The notes below the pieces were generated by a model. That model worked only from the letters and a program-made list of their open reading frames with translations. It ran no database searches and was not told the origin of the DNA. A DNA stretch of 64,000 nt from a virus (taxonomy: Duplodnaviria; Heunggongvirae; Uroviricota; Caudoviricetes): the IMG/VR virus record IMGVR_UViG_3300033074_002207; one strand, 5' to 3'. Positions within the stretch are counted from its first letter, which is position 1. The number at the start of each line of letters is the position of its first letter. Shown here in pieces: positions 5,935 through 59,390 of this stretch. Both the position numbers and the translations under genes were made by a program.

Positions 5935-8100
5935 TTGGCTATGGAAAAGCTTCCTTCTAAAAACTTGACTATCAATCAACCAAACAGCTTTCCGCTCTCC
6001 AAAATAAGAATCATGAATAAACTGAATAACATCTACCTTCGTCGTCGCAACCGATTGGTTCTCGAAGCCAACAACGCATATGATACAACTTCTATGCTCT
6101 ATGTTGCCACTATGGTGAAGAATCTCGAAACGCTTGGATACACGTTTTCTGAGCGATTGATGCGAGAATGCACCCGTTTTACACTTCCAGAGCTTACTGC
6201 TTTTAATGCTTGGATTCTTTCTGCTATCAAGCAAGCTAAGGGCGCACATCGGGTACACAAACCTATGTATCCCAATTTTCCATCACAAGTTATGGAAATG
6301 TCTGAATTGGAGTTGTATGTCAATGCAATTTTCCACTACTGGACAGATGGCAAGTGGACACCACCGTCAGAAGTCAAGGAGCGATTCCCGTTAGTTGACA
6401 TCACTCAGTTCACACAAATCGACCTTGGGTCTGATGTTGACCGATTTAAGCTTTTCACCCAGTTGGCTTCAGCCAACGTTGCCTGGGGCGCTCAGGACAA
6501 AGAGGATGTAGAAGAGTTTGTTGTTGTTTATGGCGACAATCTACTTGCTCACATTCCTTCGAATGTTCCACAAAAGGAAAATGCTGCTGCTTTGTCACAA
6601 ATGCTCCTTGCCATCACAACAAATGCCGCTGATTTGGTGGGCAAATTCTGTCATACAGCCACCGACATTCTTCGGCTTGCTGTTGCTATGAGCGGTGGTG
6701 ATGTATCGCTTGCCGCAAAACCTCGATTTAAGAATTTTAAGAGAGCAGAGCGCGTATTTTTGCTTGAGTTGCTGAATGCTGTCCAAAATCCTGTTGAAGA
6801 TATGCTTCGATGGAAGGGCTACTGGCTGCGCCTTGGCGAAAAGTTACACGTTGGGGAATACGCTAAGCGATTCCCTAATGCTGTAGATGCATTTTCTAAA
6901 CTTCGAAACAACGAAAAGGTTGAAACTTTCAACAGTGTCGTTGAACAAGCTTTGCGTTATCATAACGCAGATACTTTGATGAAGACGCTAACTGGACGTG
7001 CTGGCGATTTTGCGCGACGGCTTGACCATGTTTTGCGCAACAACAAGAGTCAGCAGGAAGCTATCGTGGCTTCTTTCAAGACGGTTGCAAATAAGGTTTC
7101 TACACCCGTTTTATTACAGGTGATGACTCACTTCAAGCATCGAAACACACCGACTCGTTTGCGCACGTTCTTCCCCAAGGGTAATGTTGCTAAAGCGAAG
7201 GCGATTGAAAACAATTTGGCATCTATTCCGCAATCTGTGTGTCAAAGTGTGGTGGCTGTGTGTGAGAACGCTTTGATTGAGCGATTCCGGGCTTTGCCAG
7301 ACCTTGGCAATGTTTATTTGGATGACAAATTGGCAAACTACGGTGTGCCGTTTGCTCTTCGTTCATCTTCTAAGTCGTTGCGCACACTGGTGCGTGGTAG
7401 CCGGGTGCCTTTGGATGAAAAGTGTAAGATTCTTCGTTTCTTCTGTTGGTGGAAGAACGGCGGTGGACGCACTGACATTGACTTGTCAGCTTCGATGTTT
7501 GATGAGAACTTTCAGTTCCAAAGCTCTGTGGCATACTACAACTTGAAAGAATTGGGTGGTTGCCACAGTGGTGACATCACAGACGCTCCCGATGGTGCAA
7601 GCGAATTTATCGACATTGACATTGATAAAGTTCGCGCAAAAGGAACTCGTTACATTGTCATGACTTTAAACAGCTATTCACGTCAGCCGTTTTGCGACTT
7701 ACCCGAGTGTTTTGCAGGATGGATGTCTCGACAACATGCAGACTCTGGAGAAATTTATGAGCCTAAGACTGTTGCTGACAGAGTAGATATCGCCGCCGAT
7801 ACACAAATCGCAATCCCGCTCATTATTGACGTGGTAGACCGAGTTGTTATTTGGTGCGATATGGCTTTGAAGCGACATCCGTCGTTCCAGAACAATGTTC
7901 GTAGCAACCTGAGTGGTATTAACGTAACCCTGGAGTCCTTTGCAACGATGAAGAAGCCAAATCTATATGATTTGCTGAAGCTTCACGCCAAAGCCCGTGG
8001 CAACATTGTGGAATCACTTGAGCAAGCAAACACTGTTTTCTCAGTTGCCAACGACACTCCATACAAACTAGAAGAGATTTCGTCAGAGTATATGGTATAA
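5935..8100 (+). CDS. large hypothetical protein (721 aa) with C-terminal vWA-like MIDAS motif (DxSxS)
   Basis: long helical N-terminal region; TDIDLSASM motif at about residue 520; the true start may be an internal Met. Confidence 0.45.
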   Translation: MAMEKLPSKNLTINQPNSFPLSKIRIMNKLNNIYLRRRNRLVLEANNAYDTTSMLYVATMVKNLETLGYTFSERLMRECTRFTLPELTAFNAWILSAIKQAKGAHRVHKPMYPNFPSQVMEMSELELYVNAIFHYWTDGKWTPPSEVKERFPLVDITQFTQIDLGSDVDRFKLFTQLASANVAWGAQDKEDVEEFVVVYGDNLLAHIPSNVPQKENAAALSQMLLAITTNAADLVGKFCHTATDILRLAVAMSGGDVSLAAKPRFKNFKRAERVFLLELLNAVQNPVEDMLRWKGYWLRLGEKLHVGEYAKRFPNAVDAFSKLRNNEKVETFNSVVEQALRYHNADTLMKTLTGRAGDFARRLDHVLRNNKSQQEAIVASFKTVANKVSTPVLLQVMTHFKHRNTPTRLRTFFPKGNVAKAKAIENNLASIPQSVCQSVVAVCENALIERFRALPDLGNVYLDDKLANYGVPFALRSSSKSLRTLVRGSRVPLDEKCKILRFFCWWKNGGGRTDIDLSASMFDENFQFQSSVAYYNLKELGGCHSGDITDAPDGASEFIDIDIDKVRAKGTRYIVMTLNSYSRQPFCDLPECFAGWMSRQHADSGEIYEPKTVADRVDIAADTQIAIPLIIDVVDRVVIWCDMALKRHPSFQNNVRSNLSGINVTLESFATMKKPNLYDLLKLHAKARGNIVESLEQANTVFSVANDTPYKLEEISSEYMV

Positions 8101-11412: not shown

Positions 11413-11489
11413 GGCGGCGTAGTGTAACGGTCAGCATACCACCCTCTCAAGGTCGGAGATTGCGGGTTCGAATCCCGTCGTCGCTACCA
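11413..11489 (+). tRNA. tRNA-Glu(CTC) (hand-folded)
   Basis: acceptor ggcggcg/cgtcgct, anticodon stem ccacc/ggtcg with loop ctCTCaa, T arm gcggg-ttcgaat-cccgt, CCA encoded. Confidence 0.6.
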
Positions 11490-11507
11490 AAATCTCAATC
11501 AACACAC

Positions 11508-11583
11508 GGGGCGGTCGTCTAGCGGTATAGGATTTATCCCTTTCAAGGATAAGAGCGGAGTTCGAGTCTCCGTCGCCCTACCA
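11508..11583 (+). tRNA. tRNA-Glu(TTC) (hand-folded)
   Basis: acceptor ggggcgg/tcgccct, anticodon stem tatcc/ggata with loop ctTTCaa, CCA encoded. Confidence 0.6.
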
Positions 11584-11647
11584 AATTGATTTAATCAGAT
11601 ACTTGTAGTTTAAAGGTGAGCACAGTTCTTTTAACGAAAGACTAACC

Positions 11648-12151
11648 ATGCCTATATGCGATAAGTGTCAATGTTCATTTCCAAATCATGTTGTAGTTGA
11701 TGGTGTGCAAAGAAATCTTTGTAAACGTAGATTTTGTCTTGTCTGCTCTCCTTTTGGAAAGCGTAATAGACTTGATTTGACCAAACTCAAAGATGGAAAC
11801 AAAATTTGTAAAACATGTGGTGTGTTTAAACCAGCGGATGAATTTTATGTTTATAAAGGAGGAAACAAATTAAATCCACACTGCAAGGTGTGTATGAAAA
11901 AGAAAGTATTGGAACAACAAAGAGCATTAAAACAAGCGGCATTAGAATATCTTGGCGGTAAATGCGGTAGATGTGGTTATGATAAATACAGTGGTGCTTT
12001 GGTGTTTCACCATCGTGTTGAATCTGAAAAATCATTTGCAATATCTATGAAACGAGGATATTCTTTAACTGGTGAGGTTAAAGCCGAACTTGATAAATGC
12101 GATTTGGTTTGTGCCAACTGCCATGCAGAAATACATGGCGAAATACAATAG
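11648..12151 (+). CDS. HNH homing endonuclease with N-terminal zinc-ribbon
   Basis: GKCGRCGY...FHHR...CDLVCANCHAEIH. Confidence 0.75.
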   Translation: MPICDKCQCSFPNHVVVDGVQRNLCKRRFCLVCSPFGKRNRLDLTKLKDGNKICKTCGVFKPADEFYVYKGGNKLNPHCKVCMKKKVLEQQRALKQAALEYLGGKCGRCGYDKYSGALVFHHRVESEKSFAISMKRGYSLTGEVKAELDKCDLVCANCHAEIHGEIQ

Positions 12152-12156
12152 AATAT

Positions 12157-12232
12157 GGCCCGTTCGTCTAATGGTCAGGACACAACTCTTTCAAGGTTGG
12201 AACGAGGGGTTCAATTCCCCCACGGGTCACCA
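12157..12232 (+). tRNA. tRNA, anticodon TTC (Glu-type) (hand-folded)
   Basis: acceptor ggcccgt/acgggtc, D stem gtct/ggac, anticodon stem caact/ggttg with loop ctTTCaa, CCA encoded. Confidence 0.55.
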
Positions 12233-12239
12233 AATTCAT

Positions 12240-12317
12240 GCTGGTGTCTTCTAATTGGAATAGGAACCCTCCCTTTCAAGGAGTGCAATGCGGGTTCGAG
12301 TCCCGTCATCAGTACCA
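12240..12317 (+). tRNA. tRNA-like, anticodon loop ctTTCaa (Glu-type), weaker anticodon stem
   Basis: acceptor gctggtg/catcagt, T arm gcggg-ttcgagt-cccgt, CCA encoded; anticodon stem has one mismatch. Confidence 0.45.
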
Positions 12318-12392
12318 AAATTTATATGGCTCCATCTTCTAAGGGTAGGAAATAAAGAAGGTGTTACTTGGTTCATTCTTGAATATTATTGT

Positions 12393-13124
12393 ATGAAAAA
12401 AAGAACATCTATTATTTGGGAAGAAAGCACGGATGATTTTGCGAAAAGAGTAGAGTCCTGTGGAACAATCGCTGGCGTACTTCGCTCGTATAATCTGGCG
12501 ATGTCGGGCAACGGATATAAAGTTGTTAACGAAAGAATTGAAGCAGATGGTTTATCTCATTTGATTCAACGTGGGTTGAATAACAGGCTCGGGAAGCCTG
12601 GGGCGAATATTGCTCGTCCATTAAGCGAAGTATTGGTTAAAAACCGACCAACATCATCTCACAATTTGAAAAACAGATTGGTTAAAGAAGGTGTGCTGGC
12701 GTATGAATGTGTGAAATGTGGGAATAACGGTATGTGGATGGGTGAAAAAATATCTCTACACTTAGACCATATAAACGGAGACAGAAACGATAATCAAATA
12801 GAAAATCTAAGGATTTTATGTCCAAATTGTCACAGCCAAACCCCAACACATTCTGGCAAAGACAAAAGGGCAAAGTGCCGTGATTGTTTTAAAATTATTA
12901 CAAGTCATCAACAACAGCGATGTCAAGCTTGTGCCAATAAATTGTTGGTGAAACGCCCGATGAAATTTGATATTTCAAAAAGCGAATTGGAAAAACTTGT
13001 GTGGGAGAAACCCACAGAACAAATTGGAAGAGACTTTGGTGTGTCTGGCAATGCCGTAGCTAAAAGATGTAAAAAACTTGGAGTTGACAAACCACCGCGA
13101 GGATATTGGTCTGGCAGCAAATAA
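12393..13124 (+). CDS. HNH homing endonuclease with C-terminal DNA-binding (HTH-like) region
   Basis: LHLDHINGDRNDNQIENLRILCPNCHSQT; start moved to the internal Met because the ORF-track start overlaps the tRNA. Confidence 0.7.
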   Translation: MKKRTSIIWEESTDDFAKRVESCGTIAGVLRSYNLAMSGNGYKVVNERIEADGLSHLIQRGLNNRLGKPGANIARPLSEVLVKNRPTSSHNLKNRLVKEGVLAYECVKCGNNGMWMGEKISLHLDHINGDRNDNQIENLRILCPNCHSQTPTHSGKDKRAKCRDCFKIITSHQQQRCQACANKLLVKRPMKFDISKSELEKLVWEKPTEQIGRDFGVSGNAVAKRCKKLGVDKPPRGYWSGSK

Positions 13125-13247: not shown

Positions 13248-13340
13248 ACAACGAGAGAGTCAAATGCGGAGCAGTGTAGTTTAATGGTAGAACGCCCCCG
13301 TGTGGGGGGCGGTGCGGGTTCGAATCCCGTCGTTGTTCCA
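13248..13340 (+). pseudogene. non-canonical tRNA-like element (5-nt anticodon loop, G5/C5 stem); possible degenerate or intron-containing tRNA
   Basis: acceptor acaacga/tcgttgt, T arm gcggg-ttcgaat-cccg; ccccc-gtgtg-ggggg in the anticodon position. Confidence 0.3.
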
Positions 13341-16254: not shown

Positions 16255-16758
16255 ATGGGAGTAAGTTATCGTTCAGTTGTAGTGGCAGGGGTTCGTTTTA
16301 GAGACTTAAAGCCAGTAACACGCAAAGAAGATGTCACTGTTGTCCGATATGACACAATTACAGGAAAACCATACGATGTTGTGATTGAAAAATGGTACAC
16401 AAAAATTGGCAACATCGAAATCGAGGGCAATTTGCGCGATGTTCTTAAGCGATTTTGTGAAGATTTTGAGTCAGAAGAAGAAATGAAAAATGAATTTGGG
16501 GACTCACTTCCCTCATGCTGGAGTGGCTCTTATGTATCTGATATTAGGTATGACAATGACCTGTTAGACCAAATTGTCATTGGATATCGCGCTTCTAAAG
16601 GACATGCTTCGTCTTGGGACGTTAATCAAATGATTCATGAATTTGAGCATGATGATGTTTTAATGGCAATGACAAGCATAGAAAATTGGCTTGTTGAAAT
16701 TGGCGCAAACGAGCGCATCGTGCCAAGCCTATTTGTTGTTCAGTCTGCGTCTTATTGA
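16255..16758 (+). CDS. hypothetical protein
   Basis: 167-aa ORF. Confidence 0.45.
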   Translation: MGVSYRSVVVAGVRFRDLKPVTRKEDVTVVRYDTITGKPYDVVIEKWYTKIGNIEIEGNLRDVLKRFCEDFESEEEMKNEFGDSLPSCWSGSYVSDIRYDNDLLDQIVIGYRASKGHASSWDVNQMIHEFEHDDVLMAMTSIENWLVEIGANERIVPSLFVVQSASY

Positions 16759-17254: not shown

Positions 17255-17432
17255 AGGAAAAACCAAACACTATGGAAACCAACGCACGAATCAATATGGA
17301 GAACGCAAACGGCAATGCTATGCTATTGCTTGGTCTCTTGTTACTTCGCGCTGCTGACTGTAGTGTGTAATCGAATGTGTTAGAGAAACCAAACGAGAGC
17401 CCCGGTCAGCAGAAAGTTGACCGGGGTTTTTT
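17255..17432 (+). ncRNA. short transcription unit (possible sRNA or 33-aa peptide METNARINMENANGNAMLLLGLLLLRAADCSV) ending at a strong terminator
   Basis: from the 17207 promoter to the 9-bp stem ccccggtca/tgaccgggg + T6 at 17400-17432. Confidence 0.3.
17400..17432 (+). terminator. intrinsic terminator
   Basis: ccccggtcagcagaaagttgaccggggtttttt. Confidence 0.75.
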
Positions 17433-17474: not shown

Positions 17475-17563
17475 GCAGATGTGGCGAAATTGGTAGTACG
17501 CGCTAGTCTCAGAAACTAGTGCCCTAATAAGGCGTGGAGGTTCAAGTCCTCTCATCTGCACCA
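17475..17563 (+). tRNA. tRNA-Leu(CAG), type II long variable arm
   Basis: acceptor gcagatg/catctgc, Leu-type D arm tggcgaaattggtag, anticodon stem ctagt/actag with loop ctCAGaa. Confidence 0.65.
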
Positions 17564-17565
17564 AC

Positions 17566-17651
17566 GGGAATATGGCGAAATTGGTAGCACGCGGCAAGCT
17601 CAAACCTTGCTGGAGAAATCCGTGGGGGTTCAAGTCCCTCTATTCCCACCA
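17566..17651 (+). tRNA. tRNA-Leu(CAA), type II
   Basis: acceptor gggaata/tattccc, anticodon stem gcaag/cttgc with loop ctCAAac. Confidence 0.65.
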
Positions 17652-17658
17652 AGTTTTT

Positions 17659-17742
17659 GCGGGATTGGCGAAATGGTATACGCGCCAGGTTTAGGTTCTG
17701 GTGGAGCAATCCGTGAGAGTTCGAGTCTCTTGTCCCGCACCA
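17659..17742 (+). tRNA. tRNA-Leu(TAG), type II
   Basis: acceptor gcgggat/gtcccgc, anticodon stem ccagg/tctgg with loop ttTAGgt. Confidence 0.55.
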
Positions 17743-17749
17743 AATTTTT

Positions 17750-17837
17750 GGTCTTCTGGCGAAATTGGTAGCACGCGGCATCCTTAAAAGTTGTTGTCAG
17801 AAATGGCGTCTCGGTTCGAGTCCGAGGAAGACCACCA
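17750..17837 (+). tRNA. tRNA-Leu(TAA), type II (one anticodon-stem mismatch)
   Basis: acceptor ggtcttc/gaagacc, loop ctTAAaa. Confidence 0.5.
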
Positions 17838-17845
17838 AATTTAAT

Positions 17846-17934
17846 GCGAACGTGGTGAAATGGAAGCACACGCTAGTCTTAGGAACTAGTCCGTAGCCAA
17901 TCGGGTGAGAGTTCGAGTCTCTCCGTTCGCACCA
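17846..17934 (+). tRNA. tRNA-Leu(TAG), type II
   Basis: acceptor gcgaacg/cgttcgc, anticodon stem ctagt/actag with loop ctTAGga. Confidence 0.6.
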
Positions 17935-17941
17935 AATTTGT

Positions 17942-18018
17942 GCTGCATTGGTCAAAATGGTAAAGGCAACAGGCTCAGACCCTGAAATCTGAGAGTTCGA
18001 ATCTCTCATGCAGCACCA
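17942..18018 (+). tRNA. type-I tRNA with Gln-like D arm and anticodon loop ctCAGac (CAG, a Leu anticodon); non-canonical
   Basis: acceptor gctgcat/atgcagc, D arm gtcaaaatggtaaaggc, 4-bp anticodon stem cagg/cctg, short variable loop. Confidence 0.4.
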
Positions 18019-18020
18019 AT

Positions 18021-18097
18021 GCTCCTCTAGGCCAACTGGTAGAGTCACATAGCTCAAACCTATGCAAGTCTCGGTTCGAATCCGGGGAGGAGCACCA
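18021..18097 (+). tRNA. type-I tRNA with anticodon CAA (a Leu anticodon) in a short-variable-arm scaffold
   Basis: acceptor gctcctc/gaggagc, anticodon stem catag/ctatg with loop ctCAAac. Confidence 0.5.
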
Positions 18098-18100
18098 AAT

Positions 18101-18177
18101 GTCGCGTTAGCCAAATTGGTAAAGGCAACAGGTCGAGAACCTGAAATCTGAGAGTTCGAGTCTCTCACGCGACACCA
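18101..18177 (+). tRNA. type-I tRNA, near-duplicate of 17942 with anticodon loop tcGAGaa (GAG; C at position 33) - non-canonical
   Basis: acceptor gtcgcgt/acgcgac; differs from 17942 mainly in the acceptor and the anticodon loop. Confidence 0.35.
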
Positions 18178-18184
18178 AGTTTTT

Positions 18185-18271
18185 GCGGATGTGGCGAAAT
18201 GGTAGCACGCGCAACGTTGAGGGCGTTGTGGGAGAAATCCCGTGGAGGTTCAAGTCCTCTCATCCGCACCA
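18185..18271 (+). tRNA. tRNA-Leu(GAG), type II
   Basis: acceptor gcggatg/catccgc, anticodon stem caacg/cgttg with loop ttGAGgg. Confidence 0.6.
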
Positions 18272-18343
18272 AATGTCCCGTCAGAGTGTGATATCCACTC
18301 TGCGAAGTCAAAAAACAGATAGGACGCTATCTATTGACCGGAA

Positions 18344-18435
18344 AGCGGGAAGATGACTGTGGCGAAATTGGTAGCCGCTGGCCGTGACGAGCGGTCTGCT
18401 GAGATAAGAACAGCGTGCAGGTTCGAGTCCTGTCG
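18344..18435 (+). tRNA. type-II tRNA-like with non-canonical anticodon loop (tgacgag) and an A1:C72 mismatch; identity unresolved
   Basis: Leu-type D arm, long variable arm, T arm gcagg-ttcgagt-cctgt, CCA encoded. Confidence 0.35.
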
Positions 18436-18446
18436 GTCACACCATT

Positions 18447-18932
18447 GTGTTGTATAATATCACAGATATGAACAAACATTCTATAGAAAATTCGATAAAA
18501 AAGGGTGACATCCTTTTAACGGACAAGGTGTGGTATTATGTGCAGTCAGACCCAGCGGTTGAAAATTCAGGGTATTTCTATGTGCCAAGACCTATAGCAG
18601 AAATCTCCTATGATTATGAAAATTATACTGACGAAGAGATTATGGAATTTTATATAAGAGATACACTGAATGGTCTTCGAAAAGCAGTGGAGAAGAAGTT
18701 AGAAAAATACGCCGACGATATTAGAAAAAAATGGAAGATGGATAGAGAAGAGCTATTAGTGGGAGCAGTTTATAAAACTGGTGATGGAGAATATGTTCAA
18801 ATTGTTCAAAAAGATTCAGATGGTGTAATGTTTCATGAAATGGAAGCCACGCCCACAACCAAATACACAGTGAGAAAGGACGTTCAAAAAAAGTCTAGAT
18901 TTGCTCTAAATATAGTTGAGAGAGTAAAGTAA
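18447..18932 (+). CDS. hypothetical protein
   Basis: 161-aa ORF. Confidence 0.45.
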   Translation: MLYNITDMNKHSIENSIKKGDILLTDKVWYYVQSDPAVENSGYFYVPRPIAEISYDYENYTDEEIMEFYIRDTLNGLRKAVEKKLEKYADDIRKKWKMDREELLVGAVYKTGDGEYVQIVQKDSDGVMFHEMEATPTTKYTVRKDVQKKSRFALNIVERVK

Positions 18933-18980
18933 CCCTGTGTTCAACCCAACTATCCAACTTACAAATAAGAAAATAGTTTT

Positions 18981-19065
18981 GGGAATATGGCGAAATGGTA
19001 GCACGCGCTGGTCTTAAAAATCAGTGGAGAAATCCGTGGAGGTTCGAGTCCACCTATTCCCACCA
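18981..19065 (+). tRNA. tRNA-Leu(TAA), type II
   Basis: acceptor gggaata/tattccc, anticodon stem ctggt/atcag with loop ctTAAaa. Confidence 0.6.
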
Positions 19066-19187
19066 AATGTATGACATCCTCTCACCACTATGGAAAAATC
19101 CTCAAAATCAGCGACAACGCAATAGTTTAGTGTCAGGTAGGGGAACATCCCGGAGCGGAGTCTCCGCCCCCCTGACTCCAAAATATC

Positions 19188-19496
19188 ATGAAAACAAATC
19201 AAGAATCAGTTCTTTCTAAACTCAATCCGAGAGAACAGCAGTTTGTCAAAGACGTGGTAAACGACATGCTATTTGATGCCAACGGTATCAGAATCAAAAT
19301 GAAGGGCGCAAAGCGTATCCGCGCAATCATGGATTCAATAGCATTGTGTATTTACGAATCACAAGGTTCTCACGGAAATCCCGATTTTAACCCGCCTGAT
19401 GCAGATTGGGTGGAGAAAGCCCGAGCAGCACAACTAGCAAAGGAAAAGCCCTACATCATTAAAGACGACGACGATGATGATGATTGGCCTGATTAA
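19188..19496 (+). CDS. hypothetical protein with poly-Asp C-terminus
   Basis: 102-aa ORF. Confidence 0.4.
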   Translation: MKTNQESVLSKLNPREQQFVKDVVNDMLFDANGIRIKMKGAKRIRAIMDSIALCIYESQGSHGNPDFNPPDADWVEKARAAQLAKEKPYIIKDDDDDDDWPD

Positions 19497-19532
19497 TTGA
19501 AGCAAAACGAACGATAATATAATCGAGGAACT

Positions 19533-19733
19533 ATGAAAGTACATTGCTCACAATGCGGCGAAGTTGACATCAACGAGGATATGGGATTCTGGTGTGATGA
19601 ATGCGGTGATAGAATCGAAGAATCAGACATCTTGTCTTCATTAATGGTCGAGTTTAGAATGATACAGCAGCCTGTTCAAGCGCTAGAAGCAAATCGTTCA
19701 TAAAATATTGTGCCCTCTTGTTGGAATGGTAGA
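19533..19733 (+). CDS. small zinc-ribbon protein (CxxC-x14-CxxC); 3' end overlaps the next tRNA so the true stop is uncertain
   Basis: hand translation MKVHCSQCGEVDINEDMGFWCDECGDR...; not present in the supplied ORF track. Confidence 0.25.
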
Positions 19734-19795
19734 CAAGGAGGTCTTAAAAACCTTTGCCGAAAGGCGTCCCAGTTCGAGTCTGGGAGGGGGCACCA
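19713..19795 (+). tRNA. tRNA-Leu(TAA), type II
   Basis: acceptor gccctct/agggggc (two G-U pairs), anticodon stem gaggt/acctt with loop ctTAAaa. Confidence 0.5.
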
Positions 19796-21383: not shown

Positions 21384-21800
21384 ATGAAATACACAACATC
21401 ATTCATCGTATTTCCAAAACACTGTAATCATTTGCGCGAAGTCATTTTTGGCGGACAGTTTATGGCTGAAATGGATTTAGCCGCAGCCCATTGTATTCGA
21501 CGCCTTTTGTTTAAGGCAAATGAAGGAGTAGAGCATGCCGTTACTCATAAAGCCAATTTTGATTTCCAAAAGCCAGCCTATCTTGGCGACTTAATTGAAC
21601 TAGAGGCTGAGGTTAAGTCTCTGGGAGAAAAATCTATTGTTGTTCAGGTTGTGGCTTGGCGCAACCGCAAGAATGTTCGCGCTCGCATGGCTATTGGCGA
21701 TTTTGTTTTTGTGGCTATCGGTGCTGTTGACGACCTTACAGGACACCCGGAATTTTTACCCTACAAAAATCACGGTTTGACAGACGAAGATATTGAATAA
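21384..21800 (+). CDS. hot-dog fold acyl-CoA thioesterase-like protein
   Basis: VFPKHCNHLREVIFGGQFMAEMDLAAAH resembles the YciA/4HBT hot-dog signature. Confidence 0.45.
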   Translation: MKYTTSFIVFPKHCNHLREVIFGGQFMAEMDLAAAHCIRRLLFKANEGVEHAVTHKANFDFQKPAYLGDLIELEAEVKSLGEKSIVVQVVAWRNRKNVRARMAIGDFVFVAIGAVDDLTGHPEFLPYKNHGLTDEDIE

Positions 21801-23157
21801 GATGAGTGACCAGCCCAGTTATTTGATAGACATTCCACCAGCCACCATCAGTGGTGAGTTGCACATGGGGCATATGTTCAGCTATGCCCAAATGGATTTT
21901 GTTGCCCGATATCATCAAATGATGGGTAAAGAATTGATTTACCCATTTTGTTACGATAACAATGGTTTGCCTACCGAAAAACTCGCACACAAAAACCAAG
22001 CATATGGGAAAGATGAAATTTTATCTTTTTCTCAGGATTGGTCGCAAGGATATTTGCAAACCTTCGAATCATTAGGGCTTGCACTATCTCCACAATCTTA
22101 TAATACTTTTGACTCCAATGCCGTTGCTCTGGCACAAATGTCATTTCAAGATTTGAAAGACAAGGGGCTTGTTTACAAAGCTCATACTGAATTTTTCTGG
22201 TGTCCAGTAACTCAGGTTTCGGTTTCGCAATCAGAGTTGACTGATGACATGCGTTATGAACGCTCTGGCGAGAAGGTTGAAATACGCAGTGGCGAAGGGT
22301 ATTTTGTTCGTATGATTGACCATTTGCCCGAGATTCGTCAAGCCATTGAAGAAATTCAGTGGCACCCGGAGCATTTCAAGCATAGACTGCTTCGATGGTT
22401 GGATGATTTGAAATTTGATTGGTCGATAAGCCGCGAAAGAAACTTTGGAATTCCTATTCCTGGAGAAGAGGGATTGGTTTTTGACACATGGTTTACAAGC
22501 AGCCTGTCGCCTCAAATGGCTTATTGTGCAGGTGGAAACACGCCCACATTAGACGTTCCGACTTTTGATGCTAGATTTCAGGCTCATGATATTATCAGAA
22601 CATGGGCTTTGTTTACGATTGTCAAATCGCTATATCACAACAACCGAATTCCTTGGAAGCATATTGTTATTAGCGGGCATGCAGTAGATAAACAAGGCAA
22701 AAAGCTGTCGAAAAGCTCACCAAATTACAAGCCTGCAACTTATTATTTTGAGCAATGGGGCGCTGACCCACTTCGTTTTTGGGCTGCTCAAAATCCAGTA
22801 GGCACAGACACCAAGCTCGATGAATCTGTAATGCTGCACGGGAAGAAGCTAATCAATAAAATTAAAAATGCTCGTAGATTCCTTGGTATGCAGTCAGATG
22901 CTGAAACTTGCGATGAGTGGATGAGTCAATGGATGTCCGTCAAAGCCGAGTTCTGCAACATGATGGAAAGCTTCAACTGGAGTGATGCGCTCAAGTTATT
23001 AACCAAATTTTTCTGGCATACTTATTGTGATATCTTTATTGAAGCCAACAAGCAGCAACCTGCAACTTTAACTTTGTCTTTGATAATGGATGATATGCTT
23101 GATTGCTATTCAATCTTTATGCCTGAAGTTAAACCCATACAATGTGAGATAAAATGA
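21793..23157 (+). CDS. catalytic-core-only class Ia aminoacyl-tRNA synthetase homologue (ValRS/IleRS/LeuRS family); lacks CP1 editing and anticodon-binding domains
   Basis: PPATISGELHMGHMF (HIGH), ARYHQMMGK, FDTWFTSS, GKKLSKS (KMSKS); 454 aa. Confidence 0.7.
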   Translation: MNKMSDQPSYLIDIPPATISGELHMGHMFSYAQMDFVARYHQMMGKELIYPFCYDNNGLPTEKLAHKNQAYGKDEILSFSQDWSQGYLQTFESLGLALSPQSYNTFDSNAVALAQMSFQDLKDKGLVYKAHTEFFWCPVTQVSVSQSELTDDMRYERSGEKVEIRSGEGYFVRMIDHLPEIRQAIEEIQWHPEHFKHRLLRWLDDLKFDWSISRERNFGIPIPGEEGLVFDTWFTSSLSPQMAYCAGGNTPTLDVPTFDARFQAHDIIRTWALFTIVKSLYHNNRIPWKHIVISGHAVDKQGKKLSKSSPNYKPATYYFEQWGADPLRFWAAQNPVGTDTKLDESVMLHGKKLINKIKNARRFLGMQSDAETCDEWMSQWMSVKAEFCNMMESFNWSDALKLLTKFFWHTYCDIFIEANKQQPATLTLSLIMDDMLDCYSIFMPEVKPIQCEIK

Positions 23158-23620: not shown

Positions 23621-23705
23621 GGGGCGGTGGCGTAATCGGTAGCCGCAGCAGTCTCAAAAACTGCCGTCGCAAGACGTGAGGGTTCGAGTCCCTCCTGCCC
23701 CACCA
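23621..23705 (+). tRNA. tRNA-Leu(CAA), type II
   Basis: acceptor ggggcgg/ctgcccc, anticodon stem gcagt/actgc with loop ctCAAaa, CCA encoded. Confidence 0.6.
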
Positions 23706-27682: not shown

Positions 27683-27759
27683 GGGAGTTTGGCAGAGATG
27701 GTCTATGCGTCGGGTTGAAGCCCCGATTTAAGTCGGTTCGAGTCCGATGGCTCCCACCA
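27683..27759 (+). tRNA. tRNA with anticodon GAA (Phe-type), Tyr/Ser-like D arm but short variable loop
   Basis: acceptor gggagtt/ggctccc, anticodon stem tcggg/cccga with loop ttGAAgc. Confidence 0.55.
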
Positions 27760-27769
27760 AGATTTATGT

Positions 27770-27846
27770 GCCTCTTTGGTATAAACTGGTGAGTACGCTA
27801 GCCTGAAGAGCTTGAAGTCGGAGTTTGATTCTCCGGGGAGGCACCA
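27770..27846 (+). tRNA. tRNA, anticodon loop ctGAAga (GAA) with imperfect anticodon stem
   Basis: acceptor gcctctt/gggaggc, T arm cggag-tttgatt-ctccg. Confidence 0.45.
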
Positions 27847-27851
27847 AATAC

Positions 27852-27927
27852 GGGGATGTGGCAGAGTTGGTCAATGCGCTCGGCTGAAAACCGAGTTATC
27901 AGGGTTCGATTCCCTGCTACCCCACCA
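27852..27927 (+). tRNA. tRNA-like, anticodon GAA; two acceptor-stem mismatches (possible pseudo-tRNA)
   Basis: anticodon stem ctcgg/ccgag with loop ctGAAaa, T arm caggg-ttcgatt-ccctg. Confidence 0.4.
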
Positions 27928-27931
27928 ATAC

Positions 27932-28008
27932 CCGGACTTAGCTCACGGTGGTAGAGCGCCTCGCTGAAGACGAGGAGGTACTCGGTTCGACTCCGAGAGT
28001 CCGGGCCA
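27932..28008 (+). tRNA. tRNA-Phe(GAA), canonical
   Basis: acceptor ccggact/agtccgg, D stem gctc/gagc, anticodon stem cctcg/cgagg with loop ctGAAga, CCA encoded; overall very close to a bacterial tRNA-Phe design. Confidence 0.7.
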
Positions 28009-28065: not shown

Positions 28066-28641
28066 ATGAAACAGTGTATTAAATGCGGAGAGTTATTTCC
28101 GTCTACAATAGTGGTTAATGGCAAGAATAGGAATCTTCAAAATAGAACTCTTTGTCTTGACTGTGTTCCCTTCGGAGCAAGAAGTAATTCTACGGCTTTT
28201 CAGGTAAAGAAAGACATGGGTGTGCAACATTGGAGGATTAATGCTGGGGACACGCCCTGTTGTGTACTTTGTGGATGTGAAAAAAAGCGCGGACGCGGTA
28301 ATAGTATTCGTCTTTGCAATGTTTGTTTAAATAAAGCGCGTAGATACTTGTCTAAACAAAAAGCCATTGATATGTTGGGTGGTAAGTGTAAGGAGTGTGG
28401 ATGGACTGGTAATCAAGCTGGTTTTGATTTTCACCACAGAGACCCTAGTCAAAAAGAATTTTCTCTTGGAAATATAGCTCATAAAAGCTGGAGTGTGATT
28501 AAAGAAGAATTAAAAAAATGTGATTTGTTATGTAGAAATTGCCACAGTATTCATCACTCTACTAGATACGGAGATGATTTCTTACAAGAAGTTGCAATTT
28601 TACAAGCAAGAAGTAAAATATATCAAAACCCCAATGGTTGA
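28066..28641 (+). CDS. HNH homing endonuclease with zinc ribbon
   Basis: GKCKECGW...FHHRDP...CDLLCRNCHSIHH. Confidence 0.75.
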   Translation: MKQCIKCGELFPSTIVVNGKNRNLQNRTLCLDCVPFGARSNSTAFQVKKDMGVQHWRINAGDTPCCVLCGCEKKRGRGNSIRLCNVCLNKARRYLSKQKAIDMLGGKCKECGWTGNQAGFDFHHRDPSQKEFSLGNIAHKSWSVIKEELKKCDLLCRNCHSIHHSTRYGDDFLQEVAILQARSKIYQNPNG

Positions 28642-28711
28642 AAAGTGACACTGGTGACACGGCTACCGGGAGGTAGTAAAGTCAGGTTCGATTCCTGTGC
28701 AAACCACCATT

Positions 28712-40034: not shown

Positions 40035-40829
40035 ATGATTTATGCAATTTCAGATATACACGGCGACAAAAAGCAGGCAATAAAATTGCTTCAAAAACAC
40101 AACGTCATTGATGGCGAGAATCAATGGATTGCCAAAACCTCTACACTTGTGGTTAATGGTGATTCAACAGACCGTGGGACTGATGGTATAGGTGTACTTC
40201 GCTTTTTTTACAATCTTGCTCAAGAGGCAGAATCACATGGCGGAAGGGTTATTCACACGATGGGGAATCACGATGCTTTAATTTTGTGTATAGCCCTACA
40301 TGCTTACAAGGAAGATTATAACTACGAACACTCATATGTTTTCAGGGGCAATGGCGGAAAGGCACACGAGGCTATATCTCTTTCCAGACTGCATGATTTG
40401 CGAAAATATGTACAGTCTTTTCCATTGATGTGTCGTGTTGATGATGTTTTATTTCAACATGCCGATGGTTTTGAAATTTATGAGTTAGCGTCAAAGGATG
40501 GCACCACGCCAGAAGAAAAGATTAGAGCAGCAAATGATTATTGCCGCTCAAAAGCCAATACTGCTTGGGGTGCATGGAATTTGTTTTATGACTTAACCGA
40601 CGAGCGTTATTGGCGAAATAGTGGCGAGTTGATACCAGAGTATCTGGAGTCTTTCGGTGCGCGTATGGTTGTGCATGGACACACGGGTTTTCATGGCGAT
40701 TCACCTCATTTCTACCTAGATAATCAGGTTGTTAATATTGATGCCATTTTGAGTCGTGGATACCGGGCAGATGAAGACAGAGGATGCGTGCTGGTGATTG
40801 ATAGCCCCGGAACTGATATCGTTGTCTAG
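40035..40829 (+). CDS. calcineurin-like metallophosphoesterase (ApaH/PP-type Ser/Thr phosphatase family)
   Basis: DIHGD, GDSTDRG, GNHD motifs. Confidence 0.8.
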   Translation: MIYAISDIHGDKKQAIKLLQKHNVIDGENQWIAKTSTLVVNGDSTDRGTDGIGVLRFFYNLAQEAESHGGRVIHTMGNHDALILCIALHAYKEDYNYEHSYVFRGNGGKAHEAISLSRLHDLRKYVQSFPLMCRVDDVLFQHADGFEIYELASKDGTTPEEKIRAANDYCRSKANTAWGAWNLFYDLTDERYWRNSGELIPEYLESFGARMVVHGHTGFHGDSPHFYLDNQVVNIDAILSRGYRADEDRGCVLVIDSPGTDIVV

Positions 40830-40864: not shown

Positions 40865-41128
40865 ATGTTTAGAGGCGTCAAAACCCCAATTCCAACCTAT
40901 CTCTCGATAGATATTGATTTTTTCGGATATCCATTTCTTGCCAGTTTAGAAGAGTTTGAGTTGTTTTTAGAGGGTGTTGCCAAATTTTCATCTGATAACA
41001 ATATTTTAATTCAAGCTATGGTCAACCACCCACGACTGAAAGTCGTGGGCTTGTTACAAGCGCCGAAGGCGCGAACAATAGGGAGATTGACTGCTCCCCT
41101 AAAGAAGCTATATTCTTACTGGCATTAA
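40865..41128 (+). CDS. hypothetical ORF whose 3' half overlaps the IS right-end hairpin; possibly a 5' remnant of a gene disrupted by the IS
   Basis: SIDIDFFGYPF (SxDxD) motif; the ORF reads into the IS end. Confidence 0.3.
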   Translation: MFRGVKTPIPTYLSIDIDFFGYPFLASLEEFELFLEGVAKFSSDNNILIQAMVNHPRLKVVGLLQAPKARTIGRLTAPLKKLYSYWH

Positions 41129-42262
41129 AGTCAGCATTCTCTGTGTGTCCGCAGGACACACAGAGAAACAAAGATTGACTCTTTCTATTGGCCTTTTCAC
41201 AATGTCCACATTCGCTACACGTCTGCGACGTGTAGCGAGCAGGGATAATAGCTAAAGGCACTCCATAGAGTTCAGCTTTGTAAGCAATGTAGCTTCTGAG
41301 TTGGGCGAACGCCCAACTCATTCTTTGACTTCTATTCACCCGCTTGACCGTTACTCTTTTATTGATATTTGTTAGCTCTTCGAGAGCTAACAAATATCCG
41401 AGTGCCTTTGCTTTTGTTACTAGAAGTTTTGAAATGACGTGATTGACGTCTCTTCTGAATCTGGATTCTTTTTGTCCAGCTTTCTTGACTCTTCTCATTG
41501 CAGAGCGCGTTCCGCGCTTCTGCAATCGTTGGCGATGAGCATGATACTGCTTTCGTTTCTTCTCGATGTGCTCTCCTGAGAACACATCTCCCAAAGAACT
41601 TACGGCAATTTTGTTCACTCCCAAGTCGATGCCTATGACGCCCTTGGCGTCATAGGCTGATGCTGTTGGGATTTCCAAGTTGCAGAGCAAGTAGAACTTG
41701 TTGTTTTGATAGACTAAATCTACTTGTCCTCTTCTAAATTTGAATCTGTCTTTGTCGTAGACTTGGATTGGAATTTCCATTCTCCCATCATTAGTCCAGA
41801 TACTGACAGTCCCTGAATCCCTGAAAGTAATCACTCTGTCGTCGTAGACGACAGCAGAAGTCTTCTTGAAGAAGTTCCTCTGATGTCTATTTCTCTTCAC
41901 TTTATAGGAGTCGCTCACGACTCCTATAGCTCGTACAACGAGCTGGGAAGAGAAGTCGGGCAGCGCTTCGCGCTGCCCTCTATACACCATATGATGTAGC
42001 TGAACTTTTTGATACTCTTTGGCTTCAAATGCTTGATTGGAAATATCGTTGCAAATATCGTTGAAAGTATTCATAGTGCGCAGAAGCGCACTATGTTGAA
42101 TCTCATTTGTATTGAGCTTCACTTTCAAAGTGATATTCACAATAAGGATTTTATGGTAGAAATGCTTTTTGTCCTTGTTGTTTTGAACAAATGTGCTATA
42201 ATTATTTCAGAGGCTCGATTCCTCCCACGATTAAAGTCGTGGGTTTCCTCTCGCAATTATCA
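41000..42262 (-). mobile_element. IS200/IS605-family insertion sequence carrying only tnpB (IS1341-like), with subterminal hairpins at both ends
   Basis: hairpins cccacgac-tgaaa-gtcgtggg at about 41027-41050 and cccacga-ttaaa-gtcgtggg at about 42225-42245; boundaries approximate. Confidence 0.6.
41022..42140 (-). CDS. tnpB: TnpB (OrfB) RuvC-like RNA-guided nuclease / IS605 accessory protein
   Basis: C-terminal RuvC-III plus zinc finger ...ARYTSQTCSECGH...CVSCGHTENADFNASKNI. Confidence 0.8.
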   Translation of the reverse strand: MNITLKVKLNTNEIQHSALLRTMNTFNDICNDISNQAFEAKEYQKVQLHHMVYRGQREALPDFSSQLVVRAIGVVSDSYKVKRNRHQRNFFKKTSAVVYDDRVITFRDSGTVSIWTNDGRMEIPIQVYDKDRFKFRRGQVDLVYQNNKFYLLCNLEIPTASAYDAKGVIGIDLGVNKIAVSSLGDVFSGEHIEKKRKQYHAHRQRLQKRGTRSAMRRVKKAGQKESRFRRDVNHVISKLLVTKAKALGYLLALEELTNINKRVTVKRVNRSQRMSWAFAQLRSYIAYKAELYGVPLAIIPARYTSQTCSECGHCEKANRKSQSLFLCVSCGHTENADFNASKNIASLGEQSISLLFAPSALVTSPRLSVVGG

Positions 42263-43537: not shown

Positions 43538-43586
43538 GATAGTGAAATATGGCTATTATTAAATCTGCTGTAGATAATGACACATA
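43510..43586 (+). repeat. direct repeat copy 2 (functional pncB promoter and start)
   Basis: gatttcctcaaaatgatttggggtaagatagtgaaatatggctattattaaatctgc. Confidence 0.65.
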
Positions 43587-44754
43587 TAAATTTTCTATGC
43601 AACAGGCTGTATTGCACAACTACCCCGATGTTCCCGTTCGATACAATTTTGCTTGCCGAAGCAAAGGGGTGGATTTACGACCTTTTCGACAAGAAATTCG
43701 GGATGAAATTGACGCTCTAGAGGGTGTAATTTTTACCGGGCAAGAACTGGATTATCTCTCTGCGTTGCCTTGGGCAAAGCCTAGCTACATTGAATCGCTT
43801 CGCTCTTTCAGGTTTCATCCAGAATATATCAAGCTTGGTGAAAAGAACAATCAACTTACACTCACGTTTTCTGGCAACTGGTATGAGACGATTTTATTCG
43901 AAGTTCCAGTTTTGGCGATTATTGAAGAAGTGTACACACGCAACATGTTTCCTTTTACAATGGAGCGTGAGGTTCAGGCAAACCAGTTGCTTATTGATAA
44001 AATCAACTGGCTTCTAGCTCAGTTGTCTTCAAACAGCTTCCCTAATGCTTGTTCGGACTTTTTGCTGACAGAAATGGGAACGCGCCGACGATATTCGCGG
44101 GTGTGGCAAGAAACTGTAGTGCGACGATTGGCAGAGAAAATGCCGAAGAATTTAGTCGGCACAAGCAATATCTATTTGGCTAAGGAATATGGGTTGAAGC
44201 CCGTTGGCACAATGGCTCACGAATGGCTACAAGCCCATCAAGCACTTGCACCACTGCGAAAGTTTCAGAAAACTGCACTTGAAGTCTGGATGCATGAATA
44301 TCGAGGCTGGCTTGGAATTGCCCTATCCGATGTTGTTGGATTTGCAGCTTTTCTTGTCGATTTCGACATGCTTCTGTCGAAGGCATATGACGGCGCTCGG
44401 CATGACAGTGGCGACCCTGTTGACTGGGGGCATCAGCTTGTCAAGCACTACGAGAAACACTGGATTGACTCGCGCACTAAAACCGCCGTTTTTAGCGATG
44501 GATTGGACTTTGAGAAGGCTTTCGAGCTTTACAAAGAATTCAATGAGTTGTTCAAGATTTTCTTCGGCATTGGAACCTATCTGACAAACGATATGGGCGA
44601 TGATGCGCCGCCGCTTTCTATCGTTATCAAAATGGTAGAATGTTGCGGTGAGCCTGTGGCTAAACTTTCAGACAGTCCCGGTAAAGAGATGTGCGACAAC
44701 AACGTGTATCTCGATTATTTGCGACAATCCACCAGTAGAATTATCAATTCATAA
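43549..44754 (+). CDS. pncB: nicotinate phosphoribosyltransferase
   Basis: N-terminus DNDTYKFSMQQAVLHNYPDVPV parallels the PncB consensus LDTDAYKLHMQQAVFHHY. Confidence 0.75.
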   Translation: MAIIKSAVDNDTYKFSMQQAVLHNYPDVPVRYNFACRSKGVDLRPFRQEIRDEIDALEGVIFTGQELDYLSALPWAKPSYIESLRSFRFHPEYIKLGEKNNQLTLTFSGNWYETILFEVPVLAIIEEVYTRNMFPFTMEREVQANQLLIDKINWLLAQLSSNSFPNACSDFLLTEMGTRRRYSRVWQETVVRRLAEKMPKNLVGTSNIYLAKEYGLKPVGTMAHEWLQAHQALAPLRKFQKTALEVWMHEYRGWLGIALSDVVGFAAFLVDFDMLLSKAYDGARHDSGDPVDWGHQLVKHYEKHWIDSRTKTAVFSDGLDFEKAFELYKEFNELFKIFFGIGTYLTNDMGDDAPPLSIVIKMVECCGEPVAKLSDSPGKEMCDNNVYLDYLRQSTSRIINS

Positions 44755-50631: not shown

Positions 50632-50641
50632 TCCTTAAATT

Positions 50642-50671
50642 CGGAGTTGTTATATAGTGTAACAACTCCGA
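50642..50671 (+). other. perfect 12-bp hairpin (tcggagttgtta-tatagtg-taacaactccga) immediately after the rtcB stop; processing or termination signal without a T-run
   Basis: sequence. Confidence 0.4.
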
Positions 50672-50707
50672 ATCCTCAAAAGCGGATAAGCTCGGGTATA
50701 ATAAGAC

Positions 50708-51685: not shown

Positions 51686-51686
51686 T

Positions 51687-51715
51687 TTCCTCATAGTTGA
51701 AAGTTTGACTATAAT
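51687..51715 (+). promoter_or_regulatory. promoter: TTCCTC-17-TATAAT
   Basis: ttcctc atagttgaaagtttgac tataat. Confidence 0.6.
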
Positions 51716-51721
51716 AAACAC

Positions 51722-52783: not shown

Positions 52784-52804
52784 TCACTGGGCAAGCTAAT
52801 CATT

Positions 52805-52835
52805 TTCCTCAAAACTTAACACGCCACGGTATATA
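52805..52835 (+). promoter_or_regulatory. promoter: TTCCTC-17/19-TATATA
   Basis: sequence. Confidence 0.45.
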
Positions 52836-52838
52836 AAC

Positions 52839-57731: not shown

Positions 57732-59390
<1,659 letters not shown>

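Follow-up and report, generated by a model that had tools for sequence, protein, structure and literature searches.

Putative short-arm leucine tRNAs in the leucine section of a phage tRNA island

The leucine section of an isotype-sorted tRNA island was analysed in a large uncultured phage, IMG/VR record IMGVR_UViG_3300033074_002207 (Caudoviricetes). It lies mainly at positions 17,475 to 19,795 of a 64,000-nucleotide stretch of DNA, hereafter the window, and contains three tRNA genes, named here by their first positions as 17942, 18021 and 18101, which carry leucine anticodons on a body with a short variable arm (type I). These genes belong to a recurrent phage lineage of short-arm tRNA-Leu, which has leucine anticodons only, and they are probably genuine leucine tRNAs charged by the host's leucyl-tRNA synthetase (LeuRS). 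A literature search found no description of a phage short-arm tRNA-Leu, and as far as the searchable literature shows the lineage is apparently undescribed.

Identity elements and occurrence of the short-arm genes

tRNA genes were called across the window using ARAGORN and the Rfam model RF00005 (gathering score 29 bits). A first-pass annotation, made by hand folding, had proposed three 77-nt tRNAs with short variable arms and the anticodons CAG, CAA and GAG at 17942, 18021 and 18101. Both programs agree with it: each gene is 77 nt long including CCA, with a variable loop of 5 nt. Folding by covariance model might have placed the anticodons elsewhere; in fact the Rfam alignment reproduces the 7-nt loops and the anticodons of the ARAGORN call, and this objection to the annotation therefore falls away.

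For comparison, 170 distinct tRNAs were taken from the loci studied (given L numbers below), including 21 distinct type-I Leu, as first tabulated, and 15 long-arm (type II) Leu. All 21 type-I sequences have A73, U8:A14, A15:U48 and a 5-nt variable loop, and all 15 long-arm sequences have A73, U8:A14 and A15:U48; no other isotype in the set is uniform in these three features. G18, G19, T54, T55, C56 and A58 are invariant in the type-I alignment, G1:C72 or G1:U72 occurs in 20 of the 21, and the D arm has a 3-bp stem with a loop of 10–12 nt, as it does in long-arm Leu. The three window genes share G1:C72, A73, A35, a 3-bp D stem and an 11-nt D loop. Class II architecture (a variable arm longer than 10 nt) is present in nine Leu genes of the window and absent from these three; A73 is found in all thirteen Leu-type genes. 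In E. coli, according to the literature, leucine identity lies in A73 and the tertiary pairs U8-A14, A15-U48, G18-U55 and G19-C56. The A73, U8:A14, A15:U48 and G18G19/T-loop contacts of type I thus correspond to the recognition set of E. coli LeuRS.

In the alignment of the 21 distinct type-I members, 98.1% of stem cells are paired, and changes on both sides are seen in all 20 pairs. None of 500 shuffles matches this covariation, and controls with slid partners pair in 33–43%. The type-I genes thus appear to be under selection as tRNAs. A covariance model, R1, was built from members in unrelated phages only, leaving out the window and its relatives. It gives 72.6 to 78.1 bits to the three window genes, the highest score going to 18021, whereas the best other tRNA in the window is the long-arm Leu 23621, with 55.0 bits, and the best Phe reaches 51.3 bits.

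The first-pass annotation had described the D arm as Gln-like, and had suggested either a Gln-like scaffold re-targeted to leucine codons or a set of tRNA mimics. Phage tRNA-Gln (n = 11) have U1:A72 in nine cases and G73 in eight, mostly with a 4-bp D stem and a 7–8-nt loop. U1:A72, G73, the central U35 of a YUG anticodon and the 4-bp D stem are all absent from 17942, 18021 and 18101. The likeness of the D arm is superficial, its 3-bp stem and 11-nt loop being those of long-arm Leu. Position-specific isotype profiles with the anticodon masked, run leave-one-out over 18 classes and with an accuracy of only 63%, place Gln 12th to 15th of 18 for the three window genes, and 8th to 17th across the type-I sequences in all but one case. 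In these profiles the type-I genes have mostly negative scores for every isotype class, and edit distances between D arms likewise give no clear nearest isotype for the type-I body. With all-Leu anticodons throughout the lineage, LeuRS identity elements kept and low Gln ranks, the re-targeted scaffold finds no support, and the same lineage and identity-element evidence speaks against mimics.

Some part of the suggestion does survive. As had been noticed, 17942 and 18101 are near-identical (84%): common to both are the stem of the anticodon arm, the variable loop and almost all of the T arm, and they differ by three compensated acceptor pairs and the anticodon loop. They are thus paralogs with an anticodon change, though the change stays inside the leucine boxes. 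17942 (CAG) is a recent duplicate of the 18101 (GAG) lineage, switched in anticodon. On the origin of the type-I body, forms with variable regions of 7 to 11 nt on type-I-like D arms (L021 6564, L021 7212 and L033 1419), scoring 38.6–59.9 bits with R1, are suggestive of intermediates, but are no proof.

A near-identity search of the region against INPHARED gave a single short tRNA match, which means that the isolate collection lacks this phage. More distant BLAST comparison with isolate phages found 74-nt genes annotated as tRNA-Leu in Cellulophaga phage phi19:1 and Pseudomonas phage phiPsa374. Type-I tRNA-Leu are present in 26 Pseudomonas phage records (hosts P. syringae, P. putida and P. poae) and in Streptomyces phages, among them Wofford with its pair of neighbouring 76-nt tRNA-Leu(TAG). 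The D arm of 18021 (UAGGCCAACUGGUAGAGUCA) is identical in the 74-nt tRNA-Leu of phiPsa374 and in many IMG/VR contigs.

Searches using the scaffold only are blind to the anticodon. The D-arm 20-mer of 18021 matched 15 contigs in IMG/VR, 14 of them with a 75–77-nt tRNA at the match and the last with no tRNA; all 14 tRNAs have a Leu anticodon (GAG, TAG, TAA or CAA). A slightly degenerate form of the pattern, run against the 185,579 bacterial and archaeal species representatives of GTDB, gave seven matches at six loci, every one of them in a metagenome-assembled genome and four on short contigs. Of the seven, six fall within tRNAs, each with a Leu anticodon, and the lineage appears almost absent from cellular genomes. 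The stem and variable-loop pattern of 17942/18101, with nine free anticodon-loop bases, found six metagenome contigs, all Leu arrays of relatives; matches inside called tRNAs are all CAG or GAG, and one match at a contig edge has no tRNA called. A "family-A" pattern searched in IMG/VR matched Cellulophaga phi19:1 only, or nothing. Altogether the lineage spans five Leu anticodons and hosts from at least three phyla.

It is of interest that in some phage tRNA clusters there is no other tRNA-Leu. The L005 cluster has Leu tRNAs TAG, TAA and GAG, all of 77 nt, and no long-arm Leu; in phiPsa374 (L008, scan of 31 kb) the Leu tRNAs are CAA and TAG, both type I; and in the L013 cluster type I are the only Leu tRNAs. 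These three clusters cover most amino acids, and their tRNA-Ser retain the long arm. The simplest reading of these gene sets is that type I are the leucine tRNAs of these phages.

Some further tRNAs were seen beside the lineage. A 77-nt type-I tRNA-Leu(CAA) (L029 5365-5441) lies beside tRNA-Ile, tRNA-Met and a long-arm tRNA-Leu(TAA) on a 151-kb contig assigned to Candidatus Saccharibacteria; this copy could be cellular, prophage-borne or an error of binning. IMG/VR phage clusters with type-I tRNA-Leu also hold a 78-nt tRNA whose anticodon is CTA, of the amber-suppressor type ("Pyl" in ARAGORN; L005 4949-5026, L012 2825-2902 and L015 6318-6395). Bacterial tRNA-Tyr normally has a long arm. A viral contig with type-I tRNA-Leu also carries a 72-nt tRNA-Tyr(GTA) with a short variable loop (L018 4003-4074), and from this arm loss may extend beyond Leu. 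In the window, a weak tRNA-like match just after the Phe array (28636-28706, 19.2 bits with the type-I Leu model) is called by neither ARAGORN nor Rfam.

Relatives of the window itself were found via a protein database with contig look-up, and via a metagenome DNA pattern; the route through the mini synthetase gene (Table 1) found none in IMG/VR. L021, to which the mini synthetase protein led, is a 70-kb contig with a mini synthetase 68% identical to that of the window. Its gene order is Glu ×4, Leu ×8 (three short), thioesterase, synthetase, RF-1-domain protein, formyltransferase and Phe ×2, with tRNA arrays at 1205-1887 and 16502-16748 and the order Glu, Leu, Phe as in the window. L035 is a near-identical strain in which the long-arm TAG gene corresponding to 17846 is on the other side of the type-I trio, and which has an additional type-I TAA gene; the tRNA-Leu(CAA) at 23621 is conserved there at 6824-6908. 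Clear orthologs between the window and L021 are few: 18101 corresponds to 7293 (84%), and 17659 to L021 6744-6828 (79%). Mixed type-I/type-II Leu arrays are retained in L021 and L031-L035. The differences seen in L035 and L021 therefore indicate that the arrays turn over fast, with both architectures kept. In the window, where Glu ×4 and Phe(GAA) ×4 also stand in tandem arrays sorted by amino acid, to find a single anticodon in four copies on differing bodies is uncommon for a phage. The anticodon AAG, rare in bacteria, is carried by a long-arm tRNA-Leu in L031 (1876-1959) and L034 (12667-12750), and a 71-nt tRNA-like gene with G33 in L032 (5550-5620) is also read as AAG.

Charging, decoding and the alternatives

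On the basis of these observations, we propose that the island provides each leucine anticodon in several copies, carried by a wide variety of tRNA bodies. The nine genes lying side by side at 17475-18271 would be made as one precursor, because they are spaced by only 2–8 nt and encode CCA, and the precursor would be cut by host RNase P and by 3′ processing. Host LeuRS would then leucylate the tRNAs, which would read CUN and UUR as leucine. The type-I trio would have kept what bacterial LeuRS reads, namely A73, U8:A14, A15:U48 and the elbow of G18G19 with the T loop, and lost the long arm.

Several published observations are consistent with this. Loss of the variable arm from Aquifex tRNA-Leu mainly lowers affinity, and the arm is reducible or dispensable for aminoacylation (PMC2377443). 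It is established, as noted in PMC11028032, that LeuRS does not read the anticodon; duplicates can therefore drift among Leu anticodons with identity unchanged, as 17942 and 18101 exemplify. A bacterial type-I tRNA-Leu, in Streptomyces, is leucylated (PMC6614811).

There are also points that weigh against charging by the host enzyme. Leucylation of the type-I lineage by host LeuRS is deduced from sequence. E. coli LeuRS and one Streptomyces LeuRS failed on the S. coelicolor type-I tRNA-Leu(CAA), and ScoLeuRS is described as alone among known prokaryotic LeuRS in accepting both types (Fan et al., PMC6614811); because of this failure of E. coli LeuRS, acceptance by the host LeuRS cannot be assumed. 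The S. coelicolor tRNA has C48, but in the phage lineage the pair is A15:U48, as in E. coli. The type-I body fits no isotype profile well, long-arm Leu included, so that the profiles give no support to descent from long-arm tRNA-Leu and say only that Gln is a poor fit. Efficient decoders seldom have the C33 of 18101 or the A37 found in most members that read CUN. Finally, a synthetase resembling ValRS and lacking an editing domain is encoded inside the leucine region.

This enzyme raises the possibility that the phage has a synthetase of its own for which the type-I tRNAs are private substrates, carrying Leu or Val independently of host LeuRS. Its gene lies between the Leu array and tRNA-Leu 23621, and in the same place in L021 and probably in L035; the 64-kb window lacks a tRNA-Val; very large phage-like contigs conserve the enzyme family; and in L021 a GluRS-like fragment adjoins the Glu array. 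The enzyme is nevertheless clearly of ValRS descent, its best NCBIfam match being ValRS at 358 bits (cut-off 738), against 91 bits for LeuRS models, and alignment to PDB 1gax skips ValRS residues ~240–347, which removes the CP1 editing domain. Many homologues of about 450 aa exist, on contigs of up to 673 kb (some of 500–673 kb), and one of them, in L022, has no tRNA within 10 kb. Furthermore, the type-I lineage occurs in phages of 57–98 kb with no synthetase in their annotated or scanned regions. No GluRS-like gene was found beside the Glu array of the window, so adjacency is no rule; for the same reason, and given L022, a general rule that arrays lie beside their cognate synthetase was rejected. 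We consider a private charging route very improbable, and the position of the synthetase as a lead only. In a bolder version of the counter-defence reading given below, the editing-less enzyme would charge some of the Leu-array tRNAs.

The first-pass annotation had also raised the idea that the type-I species, aminoacylated with another residue, recode leucine codons. Charging by a synthetase other than LeuRS would be in keeping with an architecture atypical of bacterial tRNA-Leu, with a body that fits no isotype profile, and with the one bacterial type-I tRNA-Leu assayed, which E. coli LeuRS did not charge. Yet it is established that the other bacterial synthetases accepting A73 need anticodon bases that are absent from NAG and YAA, and G3:U70, which would serve AlaRS, is absent from the acceptor stems. 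The lineage is limited to Leu anticodons, in five different forms, and small phages, synthetase-free in the regions examined, use type I as their only Leu tRNAs. The same anticodons are carried by ordinary long-arm tRNA-Leu of the same array, so that recoding would merely add noise. All six Leu codons are used by the phage, each at 10–28%. When isocitrate dehydrogenase, GroEL and PRPP synthetase are set against cellular homologues of solved structure (95 Leu codons), each Leu codon aligns to Leu in 45–67% of cases, and to L/I/V/M/F in 74–92%. There is thus no sign of recoding, leucine codons keep their standard meaning, and charging with a residue other than leucine is scarcely credible.

If the three genes are indeed leucine tRNAs, the reason for the loss of the arm and for C33-like loop variants would probably be escape from host tRNA-targeting toxins, or tolerance of the enzymes of different hosts. 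In the loop of 18101 (UCGAGAA) C33, a base on which the first-pass annotation had not remarked, is retained in L021 and L032/L035 although the stems of the acceptor, anticodon and T arms have undergone compensated changes, which argues that it is real and maintained; the ortholog in L031/L034 has the canonical UUGAGGG. Among 218 distinct tRNAs, only nine have a base other than U at 33, three of these being the 18101 family and two the ACG gene discussed below. A 70-nt tRNA-Thr(TGT) (13270-13339), with G33 and the loop CGUGUGG, is a third tRNA of the window without the near-universal U33. Some anticodon nucleases need U33, and a long variable loop is a determinant for DUF1814 nucleotidyltransferase toxins, as shown for MenT3 and suggested for the abortive-infection toxin AbiEii. 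LeuRS is among the few synthetases that read neither the anticodon nor, strictly, the extra arm, and since it does not strictly need the arm, Leu is among the class II tRNAs one that can afford to lose it. SerRS recognises the long arm, and Ser tRNAs keep it in every phage set examined. Arm loss and the conserved C33 might then be a counter-defence, in which the features that toxins read on class II tRNAs are stripped while leucine is still delivered. We offer this tentatively, and regard it as rather unlikely. Under it, the mixed type-I/type-II array with its 13 bodies may be a bet-hedging panel against toxins.

The array also includes an aberrant gene, 18353. The first-pass annotation had placed a type-II member with a non-canonical anticodon loop and an A1:C72 pair at 18344; both features are there, although the gene is at 18353-18444. 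It has a Leu-type body and D arm, a long arm, A73, A15:U48 and CCA, and in the ARAGORN call its anticodon position reads ACG (Arg), with G33 and the A1.C72 mismatch. Its RF00005 score of 25.6 bits is below the threshold of 29. A counterpart in L035 (2113-2204) differs by two substitutions, one of which turns U6.G67 into C6-G67, and none was called by ARAGORN in the more distant arrays L021 and L031-L034. A blastn-short search of 18353, and of the spacer upstream of it, gave no match outside the window among the loci then compared. Since LeuRS ignores the anticodon, a functional 18353 would carry leucine and place it at CGU, CGC and CGA; CGN codons are common in the phage, and a working gene would therefore be harmful. 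Because of G33, the 1:72 mismatch, the weak score, the absence from distant relatives, the heavy use of CGN and the precedent of phage T5, 18353 is most likely a decaying copy (a young pseudogene) or a non-decoding tRNA-like RNA. The nev-tRNAs of nematodes, as outlined in PMC3333845, have long-arm Leu bodies with non-Leu anticodons and place leucine at other codons, and 18353 is like them in joining a Leu body to ACG. Unlike the functional nev-tRNA type it has G33, A1.C72 and a sub-threshold score, and is confined to one strain cluster; the canonical 7-nt loop with U33 of a functional cloverleaf is missing.

It could be supposed that 18353, and perhaps the C33 tRNA 18101, do not decode at all: they might be decoys or sponges that draw off tRNA-targeting nucleases or nucleotidyltransferases of the host, or tRNA-like RNAs of some other kind. 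The G33, the mismatch and the sub-threshold score of 18353 would suit such a role, as would the rarity of tRNAs without U33, the retention of C33 in three lineages across compensatory stem changes, and the RtcB and RNA ligase of the window, which fit a conflict over tRNA integrity; the T5 tRNA cluster, too, holds annotated tRNA-like stable RNAs with no known function. On the other hand, 17942 and 18021 have an entirely canonical form, members of the type-I lineage at large carry U33 and occupy the leucine place within small phage tRNA sets, and the lack of any 18353-like call in more distant relatives fits a young pseudogene. A decoy role appears improbable to us.

The tRNA island and its surroundings

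The ARAGORN calls for the window amount to 23 tRNA genes, which all share the + strand and are grouped by amino acid (Table 1); 21 of them pass the RF00005 gathering score, the exceptions being 19712 and 18353. The full and redundant set of tRNA-Leu isoacceptors claimed by the first-pass annotation is borne out by both programs, as is its further long-arm CAA copy at 23621. There are nine long-arm tRNA-Leu genes (CAG, CAA ×2, TAG ×2, TAA ×3 and GAG) besides the three short-arm ones, and every gene of the array encodes CCA. RF00005 gives 46.0–61.7 bits to 11 of the 13 Leu-type genes, including all three of short-arm type. A terminator-like hairpin just ahead of the array may close the upstream operon; from the hairpin to 17475 there was no call of a consensus sigma-70 promoter.

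Table 1. Features of the window (positions in nucleotides; R1, the type-I covariance model)
Feature	Position	Strand	Remarks
tRNA-Phe	935	+	ARAGORN
tRNA-Glu ×4 (CTC, TTC ×3)	11413-12317	+	
tRNA-Thr	13270	+	
Intrinsic-terminator-like hairpin	17395..17431	+	16-pair stem, 8 G-C pairs, then TTTTT
Leu-type tRNA genes, thirteen (listed singly below)	between 17475 and 23705	+	
tRNA-Leu(CAG), type II	17475..17563	+	CCA; RF00005 57.6 bits; A73, A15:U48
tRNA-Leu(CAA), type II	17566..17651	+	RF00005 52.7 bits
tRNA-Leu(TAG), type II	17659..17742	+	RF00005 46.0 bits
tRNA-Leu(TAA), type II	17750..17837	+	RF00005 47.1 bits
tRNA-Leu(TAG), type II	17846..17934	+	RF00005 54.2 bits
tRNA-Leu(CAG), type I	17942..18018	+	Variable loop AAUCU; RF00005 58.6, R1 72.6 bits
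tRNA-Leu(CAA), type I	18021..18097	+	RF00005 46.5, R1 78.1 bits
tRNA-Leu(GAG), type I	18101..18177	+	C33, loop UCGAGAA; RF00005 61.7, R1 72.9 bits
tRNA-Leu(GAG), type II	18185..18271	+	Canonical loop UUGAGGG; RF00005 50.3 bits
Aberrant Leu-bodied long-arm tRNA-like gene	18353..18444	+	ARAGORN call; RF00005 25.6 bits
tRNA-Leu(TAA), type II	18981..19065	+	Acceptor stem same as 17566; 84% identical to 17566
tRNA-Leu(TAA), type II, divergent	19712..19795	+	ARAGORN; below RF00005 gathering score; R1 41.7 bits
4HBT thioesterase gene	21384-21800		Directly upstream of synthetase; conserved in L021
Class-Ia aminoacyl-tRNA synthetase, 454 aa, ValRS descent (mini synthetase)	21793..23157	+	Pfam tRNA-synt_1, Anticodon_1
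tRNA-Leu(CAA), type II, outlying	23621..23705	+	Just 3′ of mini synthetase gene; RF00005 53.4 bits
RF-1 (GGQ) domain protein, 204 aa	23795-24409		Only the end of the PCRF domain; conserved in L021
Formyltransferase, 193 aa	24396-24977		Conserved in L021
tRNA-Phe(GAA) ×4	27683-28008	+	
NAD/PRPP genes	43549-44754, 50708-51685		
ArgRS	46083-47753		
RtcB	49459-50631		
RNA ligase	51722-52783		PF09414
GroEL	57744-59390		

Judged by its gene content, the window appears to be a translation and RNA-repair island. The segments 40035-40829, 46083-47753 and 49459-53747 hold ArgRS, a Macro-domain protein, RtcB, PRPP synthetase, RNA ligase, a methyltransferase and a metallophosphoesterase. NAMPT, PRPP synthetase and RNA ligase also adjoin the tRNA cluster of phiPsa374 (L037). 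At the end of the Glu array, an ORF at 12288-13124 has weak matches of HNH-nuclease type (ZorE, IscB) and overlaps the last tRNA-Glu by 30 nt; the corresponding site in L021 has a 232-aa fragment of a GluRS/GlnRS catalytic domain (L021 2064-2762). A TnpB/Cas12f-like gene (OrfB_IS605 and TNB domains) at 41022-42140 is on the - strand, opposite to most window genes. The segment 8338-11251 carries metabolic genes out of the ordinary for a phage, which encode an isocitrate dehydrogenase of bacterial type (367.8 bits to PDB 2d1c), a protein resembling nucleoside deoxyribosyltransferases and one with a histone-deacetylase domain.

Known systems and significance

The nearest known counterpart is the type-I tRNA-Leu(CAA) of S. 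coelicolor (Fan et al. 2019, PMC6614811). It resembles the phage trio in its 5-nt variable loop, in its Leu anticodon and in occurring beside long-arm tRNA-Leu, and the resident LeuRS leucylates it. It is encoded by one chromosomal gene, has one anticodon and C48, and A73 is not an identity element in it (PMC6614811), whereas the phage lineage is phage-borne, spans five anticodons and always has A73 and A15:U48; the two are likened here by features, not by sequence. Mitochondrial type-I tRNA-Leu likewise have a short loop and Leu anticodons, and are served by a bacterial-type LeuRS (PMC6614811). Those tRNAs, with their dedicated LeuRS, have degenerate D and T loops, whereas phage type I has a canonical elbow, in which G18G19 and T54-C56 are invariant.

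The array also resembles phage tRNA sets that replace or outlive host tRNAs under attack. Such sets have clustered CCA-encoding genes interspersed with HNH endonuclease and small ORFs, redundant copies whose loops are altered, and repair genes co-encoded, here RtcB and RNA ligase. Anticodon-loop variants of mycobacteriophages reportedly evade anticodon nucleases, and the T5 tRNA cluster is said to belong here too, in literature of 2023–2024. The present array differs from these sets in having lost a whole variable arm, and in having 13 genes for one amino acid, and the link to defence is a hypothesis. T5 was considered as a classical short-arm example and rejected, as T5 tRNA-Leu is long-arm. 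The translation-gene-rich huge phages reportedly described by Al-Shayeb et al. in 2020 are a further likeness: many tRNAs and synthetases, an RF-like protein, a chaperonin and NAD salvage genes are features of these phages and of the window, and homologues of its mini synthetase lie on contigs of 500–673 kb.

Bacterial tRNA-Leu has been held to be class II almost without exception, in textbooks and in one experimental paper that describes a single LeuRS charging a short-arm form. Here there is a coherent short-arm tRNA-Leu lineage, present in Pseudomonas, Cellulophaga and Streptomyces phages, in many uncultured ones and in a clade of very large phages. If host LeuRS charges the lineage, the accepted recognition rules for proteobacterial LeuRS need revision; if it does not, something else charges it, and either answer would be informative. 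The lineage is accessible in culturable systems, for example phiPsa374 on Pseudomonas syringae, and it offers compact tRNA scaffolds whose identity would be independent of the anticodon. It also makes it possible to ask, in a concrete case, whether phages remodel the architecture of tRNAs in order to evade immunity directed at them.

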